Origin: a phage
Reading direction: 5' to 3' (one strand)
Sequence record: PZ347661.1
Length of the DNA stretch: 64,000 nucleotides
A program made the translations under genes and the position numbers. The first letter of the stretch is position 1, and every line of letters starts with the position of its first letter. This document shows positions 7,051 through 58,253 of the stretch, one piece after another. The notes under the pieces are model-generated. The model did no database searches. It worked only from the letters and a program-made list of their open reading frames with translations, and was not told the DNA's origin.

Positions 7051-7076
7051 GACCTCCTCCGGGAGGTCTTTTTTTT
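7051..7076 (+). terminator. rho-independent terminator
   Basis: GACCTCC-tccg-GGAGGTC followed by a T8 run. Confidence 0.75.
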
Positions 7077-7104
7077 GGTTTCAATAACTGTCCCAGGAGG
7101 ACTT

Positions 7105-7329
7105 ATGGCAAGTTGGTATGCAACTATGTTGGAGAAAGACTCCAATGGAATATACAGAGAATCCGCAGGCAGTTTTAAAAACATCTGTATAGATGGGCGT
7201 TTATGCAAAATTAATGCAATAGACACTGCGGAAGAAATCCTGTCTAAAGAATCAGGGTATGCAGGATTCAAGTTAGAAAAACTTAGTAAAGCCTGGGATT
7301 ACAGAAATCCCATTGTTATTAAAAAATAA
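7105..7329 (+). CDS. hypothetical protein
   Basis: ORF with AGGAGG RBS at 7094-7099 and ATG at 7105. Confidence 0.4.
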   Translation: MASWYATMLEKDSNGIYRESAGSFKNICIDGRLCKINAIDTAEEILSKESGYAGFKLEKLSKAWDYRNPIVIKK

Positions 7330-13544: not shown

Positions 13545-13679
13545 ATGACTGAAGATTTTCTGACATGGTTTGAAAAGACTTTTCCCGTGCATCTTTGGCC
13601 CTCTGAAGAGGAACGGGAGGAACTAAAAACCTACACCTGGCTTGCTTGGCGTGATGCCAAAAGAGTAACTACTTAAAAA
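13545..13679 (+). CDS. small hypothetical protein (44 aa)
   Basis: ATG 13545 preceded by GAGGT; ORF ends just before terminator 13681-13701; below the ORF-track size cutoff. Confidence 0.3.
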
Positions 13680-15575: not shown

Positions 15576-18155
15576 ATGCGTTACATCACCTCTCAAGATA
15601 CGGGTAAGTATCCCATTGCTATCCTCGGTCATCAAATCCGAAGGGAGGAGATGATTAAAACCTACCTGCTGCCTAATGACTTAAGCATGGAAGATTTCAT
15701 CTTCATTGAGCTTCATTCTGCCCCAGGCAAGAAGAAGACTCCTGCAAGGGAAATTAAAGAGTTCATACAGCAGGAACTTCAACAAGTACTGGATGATGCA
15801 GAAACTCAATACATAATCTGTACCGATTCTGATTACTTCAAAATACTGACTAAAGAAGCTAAAGCAGAGGCTAACCTCGGCTATGTTTGTGACTCAATAT
15901 GGGGTAAGCAGAAGGTTATCTATGCACCTAGCTACAGGCAGGTCTTTTATGATCCTCCTGTAGTGAAATCCAAGATTGCTCAGGGTATGGATGCATTACT
16001 TAACCACATCCGTGGGCAGTATGCCGAACCAGGTCAGGGAATCATTGAGTTTGAAGCCTATCCAGATACACCAGAGAAGATTAAAGCCTGGTTAGACCAG
16101 TTGCTTGAGATGAATAAGCCACTGGCTATAGACATTGAAACATTCGGTTTAAAGCACTATAACGCCGAGGTAGGAACAATTACATTCTGTTGGAGTAAGA
16201 CACAAGGCATAGCCTTTAATGTGGACTACGAGCCGATTCCTGGGGCTACTGAAGCACCTTACGGGCGTATCAACAGAAATGATATTGTTCGAAATCTTCT
16301 CCGTGAGTTCTTCATTAAGTACACCCAACGGCAGATGTATCACAACATTAGCTATGACGTGTATGTGCTTATCTATCAGTTATTCATGGATAACCTGATT
16401 GATACAGAAGGCTTACTACATGGCATGGAAATCATGCTACGTAACTGGGATTGCACTAAGTTAATTACCTACCTGGCTACTAACAGTTGTGCCGGTAATC
16501 ACCTTAGTCTGAAAGATCAGGCTCAGGAGTATGCTGGTAACTATGCTCAGGATGATATTAAAGACATCTGTCTTATTCCTAATGAGCAGCTGTTACGCTA
16601 CAACCTCATTGACGGTTTGTGTACGTGGTACACCTATGAGAAGCACTGGGATACTCTCATTGCTGATAACCAATTGGATGTTTACAACAACATCTTTAAG
16701 CCAGCTTGTGAAGATATTATCCAGATGCAGTTAACCGGTATGCCCATGAATATGGATACCGTTAACCAAGTAGCTAAGGAGATGGAAACTGACAGGAACC
16801 AGGCTCTGAAAACTATTCGTGAGTCTAAGCTCATGAAGAACTTCACACTGATGCTTCGTCAGGAATGGGTAGACGATAAGAATGCTAAGCTGAAGAAGAA
16901 GCAAGTAACACTTGCTGACTGTGACATCGAGTTTAATCCAAACTCCGGTCCACAGCTACAGAAGCTGTTATTTGACTATATTGGCTTACCGGTTCTTGGT
17001 CTTACTAAGAGCAAGCAACCTGCTACTGATGGTGACACTATTAAAGCACTGCGTACCCATACGCAGAGTGAAGATGTTAAGGAACTGCTCAATGCACTTA
17101 TCGACTATAAGCTCGTGGATAAGATTATCACTAGCTTTATACCAGCTTTCAGGAATGCCCAACCGGGACCGGATGGCTGGCACTACCTATTCGGTAACCT
17201 CAATCTGGGAGGCACAGTCTCCGGTAGGCTATCGGCTTCAGAGCCAAATCTACAAACAATTCCATCCGGCTCTAAATATGCCAAGAAGATTAAGAAATGC
17301 TTCGAAGCTCCTCCAGGCTGGATATTTTGCGGCTTGGATTTCGCCTCGCTGGAAGACAGAATCTCTGCACTGACTACTAAAGACCCACAAAAGCTCAAGG
17401 TATATACCGACGGCTATGATGGTCACAGTCTACGTGCATATGCTTACTTCGGCGAGCAGATGCCAGACATAGAAGACACAGTAGAATCCATTAACTCCAT
17501 TCAGCATAAGTACAAATCATTACGTAGTGATTCGAAGGCTCCAACCTTCCTGCTTACCTATGGTGGTACTTATATGGGCTTAATGAAAAACTGTGGCTTC
17601 TCTGAAGAGAAGGCTAAAACTACAGAGAAACGTTATCACGATCTCTATGTAGTTAGTGACAGGTGGGTTCAGGCTAAGCTGGACGAAGCTGCCAAAACTG
17701 GCTATGTTACTGCCGCATTCGGTTTGAGAGTGCGTACTCCTTTACTGGCTCAGGTTTTACGTGGGACATGTAAGACTCCGTATGAAGCAGAAGCAGAAGG
17801 CAGAACTGCTGGTAATGCTTTAGGGCAAAGCTGGTGTCTACTGAATAACCGTGCTGGTTCAGAATTTATGCGTAAAGTCAGAGCCAGTGAGTTCAGATTA
17901 GATATTCGTCCTAGTATTCATATTCATGATGCTCAGTACTTCATGATTCGTGACAACATGGATACCTTGCAGTTTACGAACAAGCACTTGGTTGAAGCTG
18001 TTAACTGGCAAGACCATCCTGATATTGCTCATCCAGAAGTTGGCTTGGGTGGGGAACTATCCTTGTTTTACCCAACGTGGGCTAACGAGATTGAAATTCC
18101 AAATCACGCTACCCCAGAAGAAGTTCATCAAATAATTCAAAAGGCATTCGCATGA
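15576..18155 (+). CDS. family A DNA polymerase with 3'-5' exonuclease domain
   Basis: Exo motif LAIDIETFGL; polymerase motifs GLDFASLEDRISA, RSDSKAPTFLLTYGGTYMGL and IHIHDAQYF; 859 aa. Confidence 0.85.
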   Translation: MRYITSQDTGKYPIAILGHQIRREEMIKTYLLPNDLSMEDFIFIELHSAPGKKKTPAREIKEFIQQELQQVLDDAETQYIICTDSDYFKILTKEAKAEANLGYVCDSIWGKQKVIYAPSYRQVFYDPPVVKSKIAQGMDALLNHIRGQYAEPGQGIIEFEAYPDTPEKIKAWLDQLLEMNKPLAIDIETFGLKHYNAEVGTITFCWSKTQGIAFNVDYEPIPGATEAPYGRINRNDIVRNLLREFFIKYTQRQMYHNISYDVYVLIYQLFMDNLIDTEGLLHGMEIMLRNWDCTKLITYLATNSCAGNHLSLKDQAQEYAGNYAQDDIKDICLIPNEQLLRYNLIDGLCTWYTYEKHWDTLIADNQLDVYNNIFKPACEDIIQMQLTGMPMNMDTVNQVAKEMETDRNQALKTIRESKLMKNFTLMLRQEWVDDKNAKLKKKQVTLADCDIEFNPNSGPQLQKLLFDYIGLPVLGLTKSKQPATDGDTIKALRTHTQSEDVKELLNALIDYKLVDKIITSFIPAFRNAQPGPDGWHYLFGNLNLGGTVSGRLSASEPNLQTIPSGSKYAKKIKKCFEAPPGWIFCGLDFASLEDRISALTTKDPQKLKVYTDGYDGHSLRAYAYFGEQMPDIEDTVESINSIQHKYKSLRSDSKAPTFLLTYGGTYMGLMKNCGFSEEKAKTTEKRYHDLYVVSDRWVQAKLDEAAKTGYVTAAFGLRVRTPLLAQVLRGTCKTPYEAEAEGRTAGNALGQSWCLLNNRAGSEFMRKVRASEFRLDIRPSIHIHDAQYFMIRDNMDTLQFTNKHLVEAVNWQDHPDIAHPEVGLGGELSLFYPTWANEIEIPNHATPEEVHQIIQKAFA

Positions 18156-18457
18156 CCAAAAGTACTAAAGAAACTGTAGTCAGAAAATATCATTGGATGG
18201 TGGCAGCACAAGTAGTCTTCCAGCTTCCTAAAGTGGATGATGGTTCCCTGCTTACCATGAACACAATGTTGCTCACTGATGAACCTTATGTGACCTATAA
18301 AGATTTGGCCCGTGCCAATCATTCCCTGAAGATTAGTCTGGACCAGCGTTTCGACACTTCGGTTGACCTGAAAGACATTGTTTATCTGTCTCTTAGTAAC
18401 CTGGGTCTGATGTCTGAACCAGAGTTCCAGGCAAACATGATTCCAAAGGATAAATAA
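18152..18457 (+). CDS. hypothetical protein
   Basis: 101-aa ORF with ATGA overlap to polymerase stop. Confidence 0.4.
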   Translation: MTKSTKETVVRKYHWMVAAQVVFQLPKVDDGSLLTMNTMLLTDEPYVTYKDLARANHSLKISLDQRFDTSVDLKDIVYLSLSNLGLMSEPEFQANMIPKDK

Positions 18458-18741
18458 TGACTAAGCTCTCCGGTGGATTGAATAACTGGTATGTAGTACC
18501 AGTTAAGCACCCTCAACGGAAAGAGCAAGAGCCATACCAAGCAGAGTGTGAGGATATTATCCAAGCACTGGGCATGACCTTCGATGAAGGTTGTGCCTTT
18601 AAAGCTCTGTGGCGAAATGCTGCTGCCCGTATGGGTAATGGTAAACCTGGAAACTCTTCAGTGTACGACTCAGAGAAGATTGTGCACTATGCCAACCGTA
18701 TATTAAAAAAGGCTTACAATGAAGATAACCAACAATCATGA
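18457..18741 (+). CDS. hypothetical protein
   Basis: 94-aa ORF. Confidence 0.4.
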   Translation: MTKLSGGLNNWYVVPVKHPQRKEQEPYQAECEDIIQALGMTFDEGCAFKALWRNAAARMGNGKPGNSSVYDSEKIVHYANRILKKAYNEDNQQS

Positions 18742-19699
18742 TGTCTCACTGGCTCTGGCTGTATGGCTACTACATGATGAGTATGATTACGTAGACAATC
18801 CTAAGTATCTGTCTGTTACTACATTGCTTAAGCCTATTAAGCAAATCGTCATGAAACATCGTGTAGATCTCAGTGACCAGTCAATTGATGTTATGGATTT
18901 TGTCTCCACATCAATGGGTACTGGCTTACATGACTCTATCGAGAAAGCCTGGAAGCTGGGTCATAAGACTGCATTGAAGAAGCTAGGTTATCCTCAGCGC
19001 GTAATTGATGCAGTAGTCATTAATCCAACCGAAGCAGACTTTGATGCTAACCCTGACCTTATCCCAATCTACATTGAACAACGTGGAACCAGGGTAGTTA
19101 AGGGTTGGACTATCGGTGGTAAGTTCGACATCGTAACAGAAGGTCTGTTGCAGGACTTTAAGTCCACTTCAACCTATTCCTGGGTTGCTGGTTCCCGTGA
19201 TGATGAACACAAGATGCAAGGTAGCTTATATCGTTGGATTCACAACGACATCATTACCGAGGATGTAATCCGTATTAACTACATCTTCACTGACTTCATG
19301 AAGCATATGGCCAATAGCAATCCGAACTATCCTGCTAATCGTATTATGCACAAGGATATTCCGTTGCTATCTGTCGATAAGACTGAACGTTGGGTAGAAG
19401 AGAAGATTCACCTCATTGAGAAGTACTGGAATGCACCTGAAGAGGAAATTCCTGAATGTACTGACGAGGAGTTGTGGCGAACAGAGCCACAGTTCAAATA
19501 CTTCTCTGATGCTTCTAAGGTAGATGTACCTGGAGCCAGAAGTACCAAAAACTTTGACGATATGGCATCTGCTCGTATCTTCATGGCTGAAAAAGGTGGC
19601 AAGGGTGCTATCAAGGTCGTGGAGGGGCAGGTTAAGCGTTGTCTATACTGCCCTGTCGCGTCCATTTGCAAACAAAGAGAGAGATATTTTCCATCATGA
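18719..19699 (+). CDS. PD-(D/E)xK-type nuclease with C-terminal Cys cluster (putative)
   Basis: GKFDIVTEG...LQDFKST resembles the PD-(D/E)xK core; four Cys near C-terminus (PECT, RCLYCPVASIC). Confidence 0.4.
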   Translation: MKITNNHDVSLALAVWLLHDEYDYVDNPKYLSVTTLLKPIKQIVMKHRVDLSDQSIDVMDFVSTSMGTGLHDSIEKAWKLGHKTALKKLGYPQRVIDAVVINPTEADFDANPDLIPIYIEQRGTRVVKGWTIGGKFDIVTEGLLQDFKSTSTYSWVAGSRDDEHKMQGSLYRWIHNDIITEDVIRINYIFTDFMKHMANSNPNYPANRIMHKDIPLLSVDKTERWVEEKIHLIEKYWNAPEEEIPECTDEELWRTEPQFKYFSDASKVDVPGARSTKNFDDMASARIFMAEKGGKGAIKVVEGQVKRCLYCPVASICKQRERYFPS

Positions 19700-20211
19700 G
19701 TAAGCTGACCCAGCAACGTCTGAAAGAATTACTGCATTATGATGCTCAAACTGGCATCTTCACTCGTCGTATATCTCTCAGTAATCGCACACCAGTAGGT
19801 AGCATTGCTGGGTCAGTTAACAAGAGTGACGGCTATATCTATATAACTGTTGATGCCAAACGGGAAGCTGCTCACAGATTAGCTTGGTTCTATGTATATG
19901 GGGTATGGCCAGAAGGTCTTTTAGACCATAAGGACACTATTAAAACCCATAACTGGATAGACAATCTGAGAGAAGCCGATAAAAGTACTAACGGAGCTAA
20001 CCGTGGACTGAATAAAAACAACACTACAGGTTTTATGGGTGTTACAAAATTCAGGAGTGGATACCGAGCAGCAATTAAGGTAAACCACAAATCACATTTT
20101 CTAGGTGTATTCCCAGATGTAGTAGAGGCAGCTAAGGTATACGACAAAGCTGCATTAGAACATTTTGGGGAATTTGCCGTTACTAACATGAGCTTAGGAT
20201 TATTTAAATGA
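19696..20211 (+). CDS. HNH-AP2 homing endonuclease
   Basis: HNH_3-like AHRLAWFYVYG...DHKD...NWIDNLR plus AP2-like GVTKFRSGYRAAIKVNHKSHFLGVFPDVVEAAKVYDKAALEHFG; ATGA overlaps at both ends. Confidence 0.7.
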   Translation: MSKLTQQRLKELLHYDAQTGIFTRRISLSNRTPVGSIAGSVNKSDGYIYITVDAKREAAHRLAWFYVYGVWPEGLLDHKDTIKTHNWIDNLREADKSTNGANRGLNKNNTTGFMGVTKFRSGYRAAIKVNHKSHFLGVFPDVVEAAKVYDKAALEHFGEFAVTNMSLGLFK

Positions 20212-22361
20212 GTATTGACCTTACTGGCATAAGTCACCACCCTGCAATTGAAGAAATTGTAGACGTGCTGTGTAACAAGACACAAAACAACGACAGAGGA
20301 TTCTTCCGTGTCGAAGTAGCCTACTTCCTGGCTAAAATGGCATCCTGTATGGGTGCAACCATTGTCACTAAAGACCGTGGTGACTTACCAGTCAACATTT
20401 ACGCTATGGCATTAGCAACGTCTGGCTTCGGTAAAGGTCACTCGGTAAATATTATTGAAGACGGATTTATGACTGGCTTCCGTAAACGCTTTATGGAAGA
20501 CACCATGCCCGTCATTGCAAATGACCGTTTATGGAAGATTGCTAACGAACGTGCTGCTCGTCAGGGTACAGACCAGAATGATGAGTTTGATAAAGTTGAG
20601 GCAGAGTATAAGCGTGCTGGAGCATATCCGTTTACGTTTGACTCAGGTACTCCACCAGCAGTTAAACAATTACGTCACAAGCTGTTAATGGCTGGGTGTG
20701 GTTCAATCAACCTTCAGATTGATGAGATTGGTTCAAACCTGTTAGCTAACACAGATGTATTAACCCTGTTCCTGGAGCTATATGACCAGGGTAAGGTTAA
20801 GCAGAAGCTAACCAAAAACACTGCTGAAAGTGTTCGTGGAGAAGAACTGGATGGTAAGACTCCAGCTAACCTGTTGTTGTTTGGTACACCAAGTAAGCTA
20901 CTGGATGGTGGTCAGACCGAAGATCAGTTCTATGACTTCCTCGATACAGGGTATGCACGTCGCTGTCTGTTTGCCATTGGGCATTTAGACAAACGAGCAC
21001 ATGCAACAATGTCTCCGGAAGAAATCTACCGTAACCTGATTAAACAGGATAACGTGCAGTCTCTTGGCAAGTGGGCTAATCATTTCCATAGTCTGGCTGA
21101 CCCAAACCTGTTTGGTTTTAAAATGGTTGTGGAAGATGCTGTGGGGATTGCTCTGATTACTTACAAGATTGATTGTGAGAAACAGGCAGAGGCTATGGCT
21201 GACCACGAAGAGATTCGTAAGGCTGAAATTTCACACCGTTACTTCAAAGCTCTTAAGCTGGCAGGAGCACTGGCATTTGTTGACCAGAGTTCATTCATTG
21301 AGATGTCCCATCTTAAACAAGCAATCCTGCTTGTAGAGGAATCTGGAGCAGCATTCCAGGGTATTCTCAATCGTGAGAAAGCCTATGTGAAGCTGGCTAA
21401 GTACATTGCCTCTGTAGGTAAAGAAGTAACTCATGCTGACTTGCTGGAGTCATTGCCTTTCTATAAGAGCGGTAATGCAGCTCGTAATGAGATGATGACT
21501 CTTGCTACAGCATGGGGTTACAAACAGCACATCATCATTAAGAAAACCTTCAATGAAGGTATTGAGTTCTTCCGTGGTGAGACTCTGAAAGAAACTGACA
21601 TCAATGAGATGATAGTGGCATATAGTGATAGCTTTGCTTATGACTACATTGGTGAACGTGTACCGTTCGACCAGTTGCATGTATTAACCCAAGCTCCCGG
21701 TATGCACTGGGTAAACCATCATATGAAGAATGGGCATCGTTCTGAAGAGAACGTTATTCCAGGATTTAACATGATTGTTATTGACTGTGATGGTGGAGTA
21801 CCACTGCATATGTGCCATGAACTGATGAAGGAATATAAGTTCATGACCTATACCACTAAACGTCATTCTGATGAAGAGAACCGATTCCGACTGATTATTC
21901 CAATGAACTATGAGTTACACCTCGACACTGAGGAATACAAAGAGTTCATGAATAACGTTATGTCTTGGCTACCGTTCGAAACGGATGAGTCTGCTAATCA
22001 GCGAGCCAAGAAGTGGATGTCCTGCGAGATTGGTTCCTATCATTACAATCTTGAAGCAAATCTGTTGGATGTGCGTGACTTTATTCCTCGTACTAGTAAG
22101 AACGAGCAGTTCCGGAACCAGATGAAGGAAGTACAGTCGTTGGATAATCTGGAGCGTTGGTTCGCTAGTCGTATTGCTACCGGTAATCGTAATAATCAAA
22201 TGATTAAGTACGCACTGGCATTGGTTGACAGTGGTTGGGATTTTGCCCAAGTACAGCAAGCCGTCCACTCATTCAATAAGAAACTGGTTAATCCATTGCC
22301 AGATGATGAATTGAATGCAACCGTAATGGTCACCGTGGCTAAACGCTTCGCTGGCAAGTAA
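20208..22361 (+). CDS. primase-like replication protein (putative)
   Basis: 717 aa; IVIDCDGG acidic motif and C-terminal helical region; position between nuclease and recombination genes. Confidence 0.4.
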   Translation: MSIDLTGISHHPAIEEIVDVLCNKTQNNDRGFFRVEVAYFLAKMASCMGATIVTKDRGDLPVNIYAMALATSGFGKGHSVNIIEDGFMTGFRKRFMEDTMPVIANDRLWKIANERAARQGTDQNDEFDKVEAEYKRAGAYPFTFDSGTPPAVKQLRHKLLMAGCGSINLQIDEIGSNLLANTDVLTLFLELYDQGKVKQKLTKNTAESVRGEELDGKTPANLLLFGTPSKLLDGGQTEDQFYDFLDTGYARRCLFAIGHLDKRAHATMSPEEIYRNLIKQDNVQSLGKWANHFHSLADPNLFGFKMVVEDAVGIALITYKIDCEKQAEAMADHEEIRKAEISHRYFKALKLAGALAFVDQSSFIEMSHLKQAILLVEESGAAFQGILNREKAYVKLAKYIASVGKEVTHADLLESLPFYKSGNAARNEMMTLATAWGYKQHIIIKKTFNEGIEFFRGETLKETDINEMIVAYSDSFAYDYIGERVPFDQLHVLTQAPGMHWVNHHMKNGHRSEENVIPGFNMIVIDCDGGVPLHMCHELMKEYKFMTYTTKRHSDEENRFRLIIPMNYELHLDTEEYKEFMNNVMSWLPFETDESANQRAKKWMSCEIGSYHYNLEANLLDVRDFIPRTSKNEQFRNQMKEVQSLDNLERWFASRIATGNRNNQMIKYALALVDSGWDFAQVQQAVHSFNKKLVNPLPDDELNATVMVTVAKRFAGK

Positions 22362-53090: not shown

Positions 53091-53324
53091 AATATTACCG
53101 TAGTTGTGTAGTTAGAATCCCCAATAGGGTCATATCATAAGATGACTCATAGATAATACTTAGTATGATGAGGTACATCCAGACATAGTGTCTGGTATCA
53201 ACACATGGTAGATAGCGTTCAGTTGGGTATGTTTAATATCTCAAGGCAAGTAATTACCTTAACAGCAGTATCAGTTAGGGTAATGCAAACAGTGAACTCT
53301 ATATAAAAAGTATCATTAGTAGGT

Positions 53325-53354
53325 AAAACTAACCCCGCCGAAGCGGGGTTTTTG
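53325..53354. terminator. rho-independent terminator
   Basis: AACCCCGC-cgaa-GCGGGGTT with T-runs on both sides; directly after the 699-aa tailspike gene. Confidence 0.65.
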
Positions 53355-55454
53355 TTATGGCATTCTTATGATTCCAGTTATGTTATTAGGGGTTGCTGGC
53401 AAGGCTGTACCGCTGAATGTCAACTTCAAGAGTCCACCATTATTTGACGGTGTTATAGTTAAATTAGGTGCCGTCCCGTCTAAGTAAACAGCATCGTTAT
53501 ATACGCGACCCCGCACCCGAATACCTTCAACCGTCAAGTTGATTAGAACAATCATATGCGGTCTAAAAGTAATGGCGGTATAGATAGCCCGGGTCGCAAC
53601 ACCCTCATTAATCTGAGAGCAGAACGGTATAGTTGTGGAAGCATCACCTTGGTCACCACTAAACGGCAAATCTACTTTACCGCCGGTGAAGTTCTGACGT
53701 GCAATGAAATTACCAGACCCATCAAGCGCCACAGCAGGAAATACTATTTTCTCGAAACCAGAGAATGTCCACCCAGACGGAACCCCCGGCAGAGTGTTAA
53801 CCGATACCGCAGCAGGAGGAATGTTGACCGTTAAGCCATTCAGGTTTCCAGCATCAGTATTGAATTTGGTGGTGCAGTTCAGGAAGTACGTATTCTCACC
53901 GAATACACCAGAGCTTAACTGGTTGCCGTAGAAACAAGTATTTACGTTGTTAAAGAATCCACCAATTTTAACGGCTCTATGCGCTTGCGCCGCACCCATG
54001 TCAATGGCTACATCGGTGATATCTTCGTAGTAACCGTAAATTTCCAACGGCATTACTTCCCCGGTGAATACTAGCCCTTTATCACAGCTTTCAGCGTTCA
54101 CGAATTCAAGGCGCTGCCCGTTTATAGCGCCGTCAAAACGATACGCAAGTTTGCGCTGTGTAACGTTAATGTTATGGATGTTCTGCGAGTTGATATAGGT
54201 ATCAAACAAGAACGCCGGTTGTGTATGCGTTTTTGGTGCCGTCAGGTTTCGGGAAGTCATAGTATGGAACGCACCATACCAGCTTGACTTAGCAATTAGG
54301 TTTTGAGCACAATCCACGAACGTAATAGAGTGTAATTCGCTTGCCTCTGCAAAGTTCCGTACGCTAAAACCAATCCCTGCATTTCTTACGATGAAATTTC
54401 TAATCTTGGTTCCAGTTACGCGATAAGTATTATCTGCGAGGGCCACATTGCTCTCTAACACCCCTGTTGATGGGTTAAACCCACCAGTAACAAACATAGT
54501 ATTTGTACCATTTCCGACTAGTTCAGCGCCGTTCAGGTCGATGTCTACCATGGCAGGAATGATGATGGGGGAGCTGCCGATTACGTTAAATCGACCACCC
54601 CTTGATGATACTTTGCGGATGCCTTGTTTCATAGCATCAGCGTAGACATCGCCACTTATTCCATTACCAGCAGCTTTAACTGCATCAGCAATAGCTTGTG
54701 TATTATCCGTTGCCGTTGTATATGCGCCAAAATCCTCTATATACAGGATACTGCATTCTCGAATCCAACGACCAGGACCGGATATGGCGGTTGGTTTGAT
54801 GACCACACCATTGTCATCATCCCTGGTATTCGCTGAATCCCATACAAAAATACCACCACCGCCGGATACGCCAGTGCGGTAAGCTTTAACCTGAATTCGC
54901 TGATTAGAAACACTACCGGTAACTCCGCGAAGCGCAACAATCGAATCTACGGCACCTACTAACTTAAGACCATCCTGCGCGGATAAATCAGTTCGTAATG
55001 TTGGGTCAGTCTGCGGCTTCCAGTCAGCGTTACCAACTGGGTTAGTTCCTGAGGGAATAGTTACAGGTAAAGAACCTAAGTAGGTGTAACCCATGCCATT
55101 GTGAAATAATAATTCATTTCTGGTATTTACAACTAAACCAGTAACAAACGAGTCGGACAGGCTTACGAATTCTCTACGTGTAGCAGCCAGTTCACCTAAA
55201 TCAATAGTACCAGCTGAATGAACCAGGACTGCTTGCTCACTGAGACTTACAGCAGTGGTTCCTACTGGGAGTACGGGTAATGAGTAAGCACGTTGAGTAG
55301 TCTTATCATAAATAACTTTGTAACCACCTAAGTCTACACCTACAGAAAAGTAGACTACTTCATTCTGCTTAACACCAAACTTACGGGCAATGGCCTGCTT
55401 ATTGGTAAGAATACCAGTAGAACCTCTACCACCTTGTGAGAACATCTCGTTCAT
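53355..55454 (-). CDS. tailspike / tail fiber with beta-helix (pectate-lyase-like) domain
   Basis: 699 aa; IEDFGAYTTATDNTQAIADAV resembles the N-terminal cap motif of right-handed beta-helix depolymerases. Confidence 0.55.
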   Translation of the reverse strand: MNEMFSQGGRGSTGILTNKQAIARKFGVKQNEVVYFSVGVDLGGYKVIYDKTTQRAYSLPVLPVGTTAVSLSEQAVLVHSAGTIDLGELAATRREFVSLSDSFVTGLVVNTRNELLFHNGMGYTYLGSLPVTIPSGTNPVGNADWKPQTDPTLRTDLSAQDGLKLVGAVDSIVALRGVTGSVSNQRIQVKAYRTGVSGGGGIFVWDSANTRDDDNGVVIKPTAISGPGRWIRECSILYIEDFGAYTTATDNTQAIADAVKAAGNGISGDVYADAMKQGIRKVSSRGGRFNVIGSSPIIIPAMVDIDLNGAELVGNGTNTMFVTGGFNPSTGVLESNVALADNTYRVTGTKIRNFIVRNAGIGFSVRNFAEASELHSITFVDCAQNLIAKSSWYGAFHTMTSRNLTAPKTHTQPAFLFDTYINSQNIHNINVTQRKLAYRFDGAINGQRLEFVNAESCDKGLVFTGEVMPLEIYGYYEDITDVAIDMGAAQAHRAVKIGGFFNNVNTCFYGNQLSSGVFGENTYFLNCTTKFNTDAGNLNGLTVNIPPAAVSVNTLPGVPSGWTFSGFEKIVFPAVALDGSGNFIARQNFTGGKVDLPFSGDQGDASTTIPFCSQINEGVATRAIYTAITFRPHMIVLINLTVEGIRVRGRVYNDAVYLDGTAPNLTITPSNNGGLLKLTFSGTALPATPNNITGIIRMP

Positions 55455-55476
55455 AAGTACCTCTTTGTTTTTCTGG

Positions 55477-55500
55477 AAAACCCCTCCGAAGAGGGGATAT
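55477..55500 (-). terminator. stem-loop terminator between tailspike genes
   Basis: CCCCTC-cgaa-GAGGGG with U-run on the - strand. Confidence 0.5.
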
Positions 55501-55511
55501 GTTAATTATTA

Positions 55512-58253
55512 CTACATACGCTGAATACGCCATCTACGCGTAGTGCTGGATATACCAGATTCTACATATACACCAGTGAGGGTATATAGGGTATTACCTA
55601 ATCGTGTAGCATCAGCAACTGCATGAGAGATGGTATATGCAACACTATCAGTAGCAGCATCATACCCATTGACTGTAACTGTAAATGCAGGAGTTGCCAG
55701 TAAAGTTGCACCACTACTAGCTTCGCCAATGACTTTAGTTACTAGTACGCCAGTACCCGCTGTACTAGCCTCTGGTAGCGTAATACCTATTAAATATTGT
55801 TCATTACCTTGTATATAGTTTTCAGATACTGCTTTCGTTAAAGCATTAATCTGTAGGTGCATCATACGGGGGTTGCCACTACCTGCCGGGATATAAACCT
55901 TAAATACAGCAACAGGAGAAGTAGATGCATGGTTCTTAAAGTTTACCATTGCGGGGATAATAGAGTTCCAATCCCTAACATCCATTGGGCGTGCTTCTAC
56001 ATACATAGATGCTGTGTGCATTGCACTCCCATCGTAATCCCCAGTTCTTCCATAATCTGGTGCATCCGAGAATGTACCTAAGTATCTGTATTTAGATAAG
56101 ACTATCTTAGTGCCATTACCTTGTAGTGAAACGTTGGGTGAGTTAGACCATCCGCCATTAATATAAATAGTAATATTCTTACCTAGTGAGCTGACTGTGT
56201 TTCCTAAACGGAACATGCAATCGTTACAGGTTATTACCTGGTTTACAGTCTGCCCTTCTACCAAATATGGATAAGACGAGGATTCTACATCCCCCTCGAT
56301 ATAGCAAGAATTGAGGGTAAACGTGTTTACCGATGCCATAGTAGCAAAATAAATACGAGACTGTCCTTTGGTTTCAAAAGAACACTCGTTCCACGTTAAC
56401 ACCTGAGTTGGGCAGTGCACTGATACCGCATGGGTCTGTTGCTCTGCCATCCATATATTTGAGAAGTTAACGTTGTTAACTTCCTCTGTTGGTTGATTGT
56501 AGCCAATTCGGATATGTGATCCTGTTAGCACCACAGATGAACTACTACGACGGAAACGGATATTTTGGTACACGGAATACCAACATTTATCAATATCAAT
56601 GCCGTAGTGGAAGTCTTCAAGTATTGCGTCTACAACCCCACCATTATCCGTGTTATACGTACTAGAAATGCCCCTAAGGTTGGCATTACTCGCATTCCCT
56701 TTTAAGCGTAGTGTTTCTAGACGTGCTCCAAATCCTACCAGGGTTACTAAATATCCTGAATTGGTATTATTCGAGGCGTCGATTATTGTGAATAAATCTT
56801 CCCCGCAAATAGTGGTCCCACTCGGCAGAGTGATACCCGCCCCATTGTAGATATATGTACCATGCGGTAAGTACAGTCTACGGAAGTTAGTGACTAAACT
56901 GGTTCCTGTTAATGCTGCACACGCGGCGTCGATGGCATTGGTGTCATCTGTTACACCGTCCCCTTTTGCACCCCAATCCTTAACACTTATATAATCTGCG
57001 TTGAAATCATGTTGTGTACGCATTACAGCAGTAATGTGATTAACCTTGGTGCCAATATGCCCACTACCACTTTCACTTCCTAATCGGTTTTCTAAGTCAG
57101 AAACCTGGGCACTGGGAACGGGAACCAATGCTACGGTAATATTGCCTGGATTATAAGTTAGCTGCCCATTGTTTACAGAGTCGATGTAAACGTTGGTTGG
57201 TAACGTAGGTAACCCATATGCCTTCTGTTCACTAACAGAATAAATAATCTTCTTACCATTAAGTACTTGGGAATTATCCGTACTAAGGATTACCTCAGAA
57301 TCTTTTACATTAGCAGCACGGGCAACTTCCTGAAGAGTATGGTCTGATGTTTCCAGTACCTGTGTCTCTCCGCCAATCTGAACAATCAGACGATCATTAG
57401 TTGCCAGTGGCTCAGTAAGAAGGATACGCTGGTTATCTGGGTCAGCAGTATATGACTCAGTAGTTAGTCCTTTATACAAACGAAGACCATTCTTATACAC
57501 AGCAGGAACAGACTGGAAGGTATAAGGAATAGCAATAACCTGCTCACCACCCACAGCAGCACCATTGTTGTATAACCAGTTAATCTGAACCCAGTCATTA
57601 ACGTTAGGGTTGTCTGGTACAGCAGGAACACCAGTCAGCAAGAATACAACTTCATCACCTTCTTCCAGAGGCTGAGCCAGAGTCACGGACAGATTCTCTA
57701 CGTTAAACTCAAAGCCACGACCTACATACTGCATGTCACCATTAATAATGATAAATGGTACACCTACTGTACCATCCGGTACGTTGATTGTGGTTTCCCC
57801 ACCAGTAGCAGAACCATTGCTATATACCCAAGGAATGTATGCACCCTCACCAGAGGAAGTACCACCTCCATTGGAACCGGTAGTAGCAACAGTAATCCAC
57901 GAACCAGTTGATTCTGGGTCATCTGGGATAATACCGGTACGATCACCTTCTACGTATAAGTAGTCAGTTACCTGACGGTCACCTGCACGGGAGAAGCCAT
58001 AAATACGTGCATACTTAGCTTTGGTTGTTAGAGCCTTAAGTTCTGCCTCAGACTGTACGCCAAGTACCATCCCATACTGATTCAAGAAGTCATAAATCAG
58101 TTTAAGGTTACCCAGGTTGCAGTACACAGTACGAACCACGTGGTAAGCATTACCAAGTAGTGCATCTACCATTGGGTCATTGGAACTGTTCTGGCAGTAA
58201 GGATTAGTCCAATCCTGATTTGCATCAAAGGGGGTATGTGCGTTCATCGCCAT
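55512..58253 (-). CDS. tailspike with pectate-lyase-superfamily beta-helix domain
   Basis: 913 aa; SVKDWGAKGDGVTDDTNAIDAACAAL is the classic beta-helix tailspike/depolymerase motif. Confidence 0.65.
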   Translation of the reverse strand: MAMNAHTPFDANQDWTNPYCQNSSNDPMVDALLGNAYHVVRTVYCNLGNLKLIYDFLNQYGMVLGVQSEAELKALTTKAKYARIYGFSRAGDRQVTDYLYVEGDRTGIIPDDPESTGSWITVATTGSNGGGTSSGEGAYIPWVYSNGSATGGETTINVPDGTVGVPFIIINGDMQYVGRGFEFNVENLSVTLAQPLEEGDEVVFLLTGVPAVPDNPNVNDWVQINWLYNNGAAVGGEQVIAIPYTFQSVPAVYKNGLRLYKGLTTESYTADPDNQRILLTEPLATNDRLIVQIGGETQVLETSDHTLQEVARAANVKDSEVILSTDNSQVLNGKKIIYSVSEQKAYGLPTLPTNVYIDSVNNGQLTYNPGNITVALVPVPSAQVSDLENRLGSESGSGHIGTKVNHITAVMRTQHDFNADYISVKDWGAKGDGVTDDTNAIDAACAALTGTSLVTNFRRLYLPHGTYIYNGAGITLPSGTTICGEDLFTIIDASNNTNSGYLVTLVGFGARLETLRLKGNASNANLRGISSTYNTDNGGVVDAILEDFHYGIDIDKCWYSVYQNIRFRRSSSSVVLTGSHIRIGYNQPTEEVNNVNFSNIWMAEQQTHAVSVHCPTQVLTWNECSFETKGQSRIYFATMASVNTFTLNSCYIEGDVESSSYPYLVEGQTVNQVITCNDCMFRLGNTVSSLGKNITIYINGGWSNSPNVSLQGNGTKIVLSKYRYLGTFSDAPDYGRTGDYDGSAMHTASMYVEARPMDVRDWNSIIPAMVNFKNHASTSPVAVFKVYIPAGSGNPRMMHLQINALTKAVSENYIQGNEQYLIGITLPEASTAGTGVLVTKVIGEASSGATLLATPAFTVTVNGYDAATDSVAYTISHAVADATRLGNTLYTLTGVYVESGISSTTRRWRIQRM

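Follow-up and report, generated by a model that had tools for sequence, protein, structure and literature searches.

The 64,000-nucleotide stretch of phage DNA analysed here (sequence record PZ347661.1, referred to as the window) carries a small nuclease gene between the genes for an exonuclease and a DNA primase. Judging from sequence comparison, this homing endonuclease gene (HEG) is probably an active or recently active free-standing member of the HNH_3 + AP2 family that spreads by intronless homing. As its specific target, the 5' end of the primase gene in HEG-less genomes is favoured with modest confidence. The window was assigned by megablast to Gamaleyavirus (G7C-like, N4-like coliphage, Schitoviridae), in agreement with an earlier note on this DNA that had called it N4-like, and the flanks of the HEG are 90–96% identical to many isolates. 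The coordinates of the gene, its domains and its neighbours are collected in Table 1.

The HEG, named type A, is present at the exonuclease|primase junction of six distinct GenBank phages (PBM-2, PBM-3, UE-M6, ZQ2, PhAPEC5 and Moo19) and of four SRA/ENA contigs, about 10 carriers in total, whereas the junction is uninterrupted in about 34 distinct Gamaleyavirus GenBank records and in 12 of 12 metagenome contigs retrieved with a haplotype-neutral pattern. Comparison of the occupied and empty alleles defines an insertion of exactly 512 bp, with an ATGA overlap restored at both of its ends. In the empty site (...TTTTCCATCATGAGTATTGACC...) the exonuclease TGA overlaps the primase ATG as CCATC-ATGA-GTATTGACC, and empty phages of the PD205, ECBP1 or G7C type read ...CCATCATGAGTATTGACCTGACCGGAGTCACTCACC... 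at the junction. In the window, the HEG ATG shares an ATGA with the exonuclease TGA (CATCATGAGT) and the HEG TGA shares another with the primase ATG (AAATGAGT). The overlaps at both ends had been recognized in the earlier note, but they are not special to the insert: one ATGA already exists at the empty site. A 7-nt repeat, ATGAGTA, at both insert ends was considered as a target-site duplication and rejected; the PBM-2 group repeats ATGA only, and distant relatives residing in their own short intergenic spacers likewise start with ATGAGTAA. The presence of the gene is sporadic, at one locus and with precise boundaries. A mobile insertion, perhaps absent from close relatives, had been suspected from the start, and comparison of N4-like genomes at this junction, proposed at that time as a check, indeed reveals a polymorphism and not a gene that all relatives carry.

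The window protein shares 79–84% amino acid identity (77–81% at the nucleotide level) with the copies in the six GenBank carriers. Its nearest copies (99%) are found in unannotated contigs from several SRA samples, and an exact look-up did not find the window protein in a collection of 15 billion sequences. The window HEG is a new allele, belonging to a third sublineage, of an already annotated gene kind.

The three type-A sublineages comprise the window with SRA contigs L099 and L100, the PBM-2/UE-M6/PhAPEC5/ZQ2 group, and Moo19 with contig L103. Between them, synonymous divergence (dS) is 0.9–1.3 and the ratio of non-synonymous to synonymous divergence (dN/dS) is 0.10–0.14, so the HEG protein is maintained by purifying selection. 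The history of the HEG is decoupled from that of its flanks. Between the window and ZQ2, dS is 0.11 for the exonuclease, 1.28 for the HEG and 0.45 for the primase; between the window and Moo19, a phage of another genus, the corresponding values are 2.2, 0.92 and 1.3. Scored in bins of 100 nt, the window is 100% identical to ZQ2 or ECBP1 until the HEG begins, and the drop coincides exactly with the edges of the gene; carriers are 73–82% identical inside the HEG, and PD205 and ECBP1 are back at 99% within 100 nt downstream. It is improbable that the gene is a decaying or inactive remnant, immobile and passed on only vertically or when co-infecting phages undergo general recombination. Degeneration after fixation is common among HEGs, and a second HNH-AP2 gene of this junction (type B, described below) is truncated in phage U1G (145 aa) and unannotated in PGN829.1. 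However, a remnant sits poorly with a dN/dS of about 0.1, with the retention of D77, H78, N86, N90 and N99, with the full length of every type-A copy and with the occurrence of those near-identical copies in several samples.

Further, the presence of the HEG is correlated, but no more than correlated, with a sequence difference at a candidate target site close by. A patch of 4–6 nt near the start of the primase gene is found in all of the approximately 10 type-A carriers and in none of about 45 empty alleles, and the linkage covers silent positions too. Type-A carriers read GG[C/T] AT[A/C] AG[T/C] (Gly-Ile-Ser), whereas empty and type-B alleles all read GGA GT[C/A] [A/G][C/T][T/G] (Gly-Val-Thr or Gly-Val-Val); the alleles compare as GGAGTCACT (empty) and GGCATAAGT (carrier). 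The window has six differences from PD205, at primase nt +15 to +26, and is identical to the HEG-less PD205 and ECBP1 for the next ~74 nt; the upstream flank is free of HEG-linked changes. Neither recombinant haplotype (an empty site with the patch, or the HEG with Val-Thr) was found among the GenBank phages, IMG/VR or the metagenome contigs. With a synthetic query combining empty site and patch, uninterrupted GenBank records did not exceed 94% identity, which is what Val-Thr alleles should give; the borderline records Jgk1 and HK2 were inspected and are both Val-Thr, and exact-pattern scans of IMG/VR returned neither haplotype. If the HEG were frequently lost by simple deletion, empty alleles with the patch would be expected; none was seen. 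General recombination between co-infecting phages would likewise leave the absence of the patch from all empty alleles unexplained. The patch is a candidate self-immunity or target-site determinant. UE-M6 (L087) is alone among the carriers in having a primase Gly7Asp change (GGC to GAC) directly beside the Ile-Ser patch.

Alternatively, the cleavage site of the endonuclease may lie elsewhere, for example further into either flanking gene or across the ATGA, in which case the patch would be a hitch-hiking co-conversion marker or a compensatory change in the primase. There is precedent for this, as the Seg and Mob enzymes of phage T4 cut far from their own genes (PMC2988022); a site spanning the junction would be disrupted by insertion alone, and the type-B HEG with linked changes on both flanks indicates that co-converted tracts do occur here. 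Nevertheless, a site elsewhere is unlikely. The tract of the window that is not PD205-like stops at primase nt +26 and has no counterpart upstream, so that a distant cut would need repair without other donor markers. The three sublineages, at a dS of about 1, retain the Ile-Ser codons while silent positions drift, and distant occupied alleles deviate in primase codons 4–8 as well.

An exonuclease query retrieved 84 loci, in which the junction was compared across N4-like phages. Nearly all of them have the exonuclease and primase genes −14 to +27 nt apart, and the main exceptions are inserts of ~475–520 bp of the HNH family in several unrelated lineages (L004, L012-14, L021, L056, L064 and L072). 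Relatives of the HEG at 67%, 65%, 62% and 50% identity occupy the same junction elsewhere in N4-like phages (P0006, P0005, P0011 and P0017, respectively), while homologues at ~47% identity are located at other sites. These comparisons point to a junction contested by several HEG lineages. HEG targets are typically conserved sequences. The N-terminal ~20 residues of the primase, M(S)IDLTGVxHHPAIEEIVDVL (20208..20270 in the window; L001-L103), are almost invariant even where the exonucleases are ~50% identical, an exceptional conservation that suits a HEG target. The consensus DLTGV (codons 4-8) is kept in 38 of 60 empty alleles and in none of seven independent alleles that hold a member of the HEG clade (Fisher p 0.0018, uncorrected for phylogeny), the latter deviating from it in different ways (GI, NV, F..T, M and STT).

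Two paralogues were encountered in the same region. The type-B gene (EC1-UPM gp47), 31% identical to the window HEG, occupies the same exonuclease|primase junction, and the changes linked to it lie on both flanks: the exonuclease ends in ...ICEQRKRYYP*, and the primase lacks Ser2 and has K24R. The third paralogue, G7C gp41.1 (L003:1007-1504; 47% identical), separates gp41 from the exonuclease gene, which it immediately precedes, in G7C, ECBP1, PW8, Bp4 and others. The window lacks this paralogue. There, a gp41-like open reading frame (ORF; 18457..18741) encodes only 94 aa, and its last 23 nt overlap the start of the exonuclease gene; in G7C and PBM-2 the protein has 156 aa.

The HEG product is an I-HmuI-like HNH_3 core fused to a C-terminal AP2-fold domain. 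It matches PHROG 99 (HNH endonuclease; E 9e-64) and, at aa 58–100, Pfam HNH_3 (PF13392) with 38.9 bits against a gathering cut-off of 24.8. In a family profile (A1) built from 56 sequences, D77 and H78 are invariant and N86, N90, N99 and N102 are conserved in at least 90% of the homologues. The family profile matches I-HmuI (3.7e-6 over positions 33–117), with these residues aligned to its DH...N...NL...N motif, and the protein has the beta-beta-alpha-metal fold with a catalytic His and Asp/Asn metal ligands. For the C-terminal domain, the single HEG sequence matches the AP2 domains of WRI1 in the PDB (E 4.6e-6), and positions 107–164 of the family profile match AP2 structures (WRI1, 5e-12; TEM1, 1e-7; ERF096; AtERF1). 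Many full-length homologues of 45–50% identity have Pfam AP2 and HNH_3 together. An AlphaFold2 model based on the family alignment (mean predicted local distance difference test score, pLDDT, of 94) contains an N-terminal helix and sheet, a beta-beta-alpha element (strands 75–78 and 91–94; helix 96–101), and three strands followed by a long helix (116–160). Its three-stranded antiparallel sheet on one helix superposes on solved AP2 domains, with homology at the profile level. Profiles and model uphold the HNH and AP2 architecture read earlier from the sequence but not an N-terminal position of the HNH domain, as the motif is central and preceded by an I-HmuI-like beta-sheet region. I-HmuI of Bacillus phage SPO1 (PDB 1U3E), an intron-encoded HNH nicking homing endonuclease, is the closest solved relative of the HEG protein. 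It has a helical, helix-turn-helix C-terminal DNA-binding region, whereas the window HEG is free-standing and has the AP2 domain in this position.

The HEG does not qualify as intron- or intein-encoded, because the 512-bp insert is almost wholly the 516-nt HEG ORF, it lies between two complete genes, and no group I intron or other structured RNA was matched in Rfam at E ≤ 1 within 19000–21000. No terminator-like sites were found between the exonuclease, HEG and primase genes, promoter-like sites are not enriched within the insert or next to it, and the 64-kb window holds no second copy of the HEG family. The AGGA motif in the last HEG codons (Leu-Gly-Leu) is inferred to be the ribosome-binding site for the primase; the longer TAGGA is kept before the primase ATG in all three type-A sublineages. 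The insert looks adapted to the operon.

A homing cycle can be proposed from these observations. In a mixed infection, the enzyme would recognize the 5' end of the HEG-less primase gene, at about nt +10 to +30 (Asp-Leu-Thr-Gly-Val-Thr), through its AP2 domain and N-terminal sheet, and its single HNH site would nick or cut there. The phage recombination machinery would then repair the break from the HEG+ genome, copying the HEG together with the adjacent patch in a very short co-conversion tract, and the Ile-Ser patch would protect carriers against self-cleavage. For expression, the HEG would use the coupled ATGA start that the primase has in empty genomes, and supply the primase with a new AGGA-N8-ATG start and ATGA overlap, leaving the operon functional. 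The exonuclease, Sak4-like annealase and SSB genes all lie within the replication cluster of the window.

Several points weigh against this interpretation. Cleavage or inheritance experiments exist neither for the HEG protein nor, in the literature found, for any close relative. The copy in the window could be inactive despite its conserved residues. The carriers represent only three HEG sublineages, so the linkage with the patch rests on few independent events. Free-standing endonucleases of T4 often cut hundreds of bp from their own gene (PMC2988022), and given such distant cutting the patch could be a co-converted passenger and not the target. Finally, Pfam AP2 (PF00847) gave no match to the whole protein at E ≤ 0.1, nor to the C-terminal 66 aa alone at E ≤ 10.

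The position of the HEG, translationally coupled inside a replication operon, could also suit a domesticated HNH-AP2 protein, either an accessory nuclease of replication or recombination acting with the exonuclease, primase and Sak4-like annealase, or an AP2-type repressor of primase expression or of a competitor. Indeed, packaging in HK97-like phages makes use of co-opted HNH proteins, and AP2 domains serve as phage repressors (CasPRs) (PMC10448857; bioRxiv 10.64898/2026.02.23.707548). Domestication is nonetheless very improbable here. As most Gamaleyaviruses lack the HEG, it is dispensable; its place at the junction can be taken by unrelated HNH-AP2 lineages, the divergence pattern is that of a mobile cassette, and its nuclease residues are preserved, in contrast to derivatives that only bind DNA. 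Taken together, dispensability, purifying selection, dS discordance and complete linkage between HEG and patch are better accounted for by homing than by any of the alternatives.

Similar systems are known. Genes annotated as (putative) HNH homing endonucleases are present at the same junction in PhAPEC5, ZQ2 (gp52), PBM-2 (gp47), UE-M6 (UE-M6_036) and Shigella virus Moo19 (gp58), and share with the window HEG the length of 171 aa, the ATGA overlaps and the Ile-Ser patch in the primase. Homing endonucleases combining HNH and AP2 are a recognized family (Magnani et al. 2004, as cited in PMC10448857). Barth et al. described AP2-associated HNH HEGs adjoining replication genes. The 'IPA-HNH' HEGs of ICP1 phages resemble the window HEG in the N-terminal HNH and C-terminal AP2 domains, the position by essential replication genes and the sporadic distribution (PMC10448857). 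However, the IPA-HNH domains are too divergent for Pfam HNH_3, whereas the window HEG matches HNH_3 and it is its AP2 domain that falls below Pfam detection. Intronless homing is the scheme for the Seg and Mob genes of T4; these (MobE, SegG) are, like the window HEG, free-standing between conserved genes, with carriers resistant through target differences and with co-conversion of flanks (PMC2988022, PMC2790892). T4 Mob proteins combine HNH with zinc-finger-like C-termini and often make distant cuts, whereas the target proposed for the window HEG would lie within ~30 nt of the insertion point, with an unusually short linked tract of ~12 nt. Plant AP2/ERF proteins (TEM1, 7ET4; WRI1, 7WQ5; AtERF1, 1GCC) have the same three-strand-plus-helix fold, with 30–38% identity over ~55 residues, but are transcription factors without a nuclease, while the AP2 domain of the window protein is presumably the targeting module of one.

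Table 1. Coordinates of the HEG, its domains, its neighbours and related loci (window positions unless a locus is named)
Feature	Position	Strand	Remarks
PD-(D/E)XK exonuclease gene, N4 gp42-like, 326 aa	18719..19699	+	upstream flank of HEG
HNH-AP2 homing endonuclease gene, free-standing, 171 aa, type A	19696..20211	+	
N-terminal region, aa 1-57	19696..19866	+	one helix and beta-strands, equivalent to the N-terminal DNA-contacting sheet of I-HmuI
HNH_3 / beta-beta-alpha-metal nuclease core, aa 58-103	19867..20004	+	D77, H78, N86, N90, N99 conserved
AP2/ERF-fold DNA-binding domain, aa ~110-162	20023..20181	+	three beta-strands, then one long helix
AGGA Shine-Dalgarno-like motif, in last HEG codons	20196..20199	+	8 nt 5' of primase ATG; from sequence
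DNA primase gene, N4 gp43-like, 717 aa	20208..22361	+	downstream flank of HEG
HEG-linked substitution patch, primase codons 5-9	20222..20233	+	changes to Ile-Ser in codons 7-9; from sequence comparison
Type-B HEG loci	L004:3045-3533; L088:2480-2917; L089:2484-2960; L012-L014		

The flanking genes listed in Table 1, called a nuclease and a primase-like gene in the earlier note, have been identified more closely. The exonuclease matches PHROG 2139 (exonuclease; E 9e-152) with a weak PDDEXK_1 match and is annotated as gp42 in G7C, and the primase matches PHROG 2135 (DNA primase; E 0) with a PriCT_1 domain; the gene next after the primase encodes a Sak4-like AAA_24 protein. Three competing ORFs were discarded. 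The antisense ORFs at 19890..20285, which is broken by stop codons in all relatives, and at 19408..19716 were taken as spurious, and a longer TTG-initiated ORF from 19639 was rejected because homologues all begin at the ATG and its added part lies over the 3' end of the exonuclease gene.

Elsewhere in the replication region, the DNA polymerase A gene of the window (15576..18155, 859 aa) is uninterrupted; the insert site known from a relative corresponds to ~17405. In PD205, polymerase A is split after ...QKLKVY by an insert of ~700 bp with a 213-aa NUMOD4/HNH_3-like ORF (L105:13474-14115(-)), and in SRA contig L099, which carries the HEG allele of the window, an HNH_3 ORF precedes a 276-aa polymerase fragment. 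Set against the intact gene of the window, these inserts indicate independent assortment of different HEGs among phages that are nearly identical. Compared with PD205, the window further has extra small ORFs of 86 aa + 69 aa, 84 aa and 43 aa (636-1102, 7075-7329 and 13545-13676) and a strongly diverged block at 53309-57132, presumed to be the tailspike region. Two anomalies were noted in relatives. Shigella phage pSb-1 (L011) has a 1-nt insertion (ATGGACTGAAAA vs ATGGCTGAAAA) ~110 nt before the exonuclease stop that frameshifts the 3' end, which is probably a sequencing error or a pseudogene. In OY979416.1 (Klebsiella phage vB_Kpl_K57alpha1.2; H23 / H124), features named 'endolysin, spanin, portal, holin' lie at the exonuclease/primase match, which suggests that the annotation coordinates are shifted.

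The HEG is no new kind of element. What the analysis adds is the prediction of a target and of immunity, and the evidence of a site contested by several HEG lineages. It is a clean natural example that offers a specific target-site prediction for the HNH-AP2 family, for which little or no cleavage-site biochemistry was found in the literature. Phage UE-M6, which has the HEG, and UE-M3, UE-S5a and UE-S5b, which lack it, were isolated on the same uropathogenic Escherichia coli (UPEC) host and form natural pairs (PMC11927229). A comparison of the G7C group attributes many of its insertions and deletions to HEG-related genes (bioRxiv 10.1101/542787), and the HEG explains part of the mosaicism of the replication module in G7C-like phages of phage-therapy collections. 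Tentatively, one HNH-AP2 clade may have followed a single target, the extremely conserved opening ~30 nt of the primase gene, during much of the radiation of N4-like phages (Schitoviridae), with each carrier lineage escaping self-cleavage via its own small recoding of primase codons 4-9 and at least two to three unrelated HNH-AP2 lineages competing for the 4-nt overlap. If this is true, the enzyme would cut most HEG-less N4-like genomes, making it a broad weapon of inter-phage exclusion and possibly a site-specific tool for the engineering of N4-like phages.

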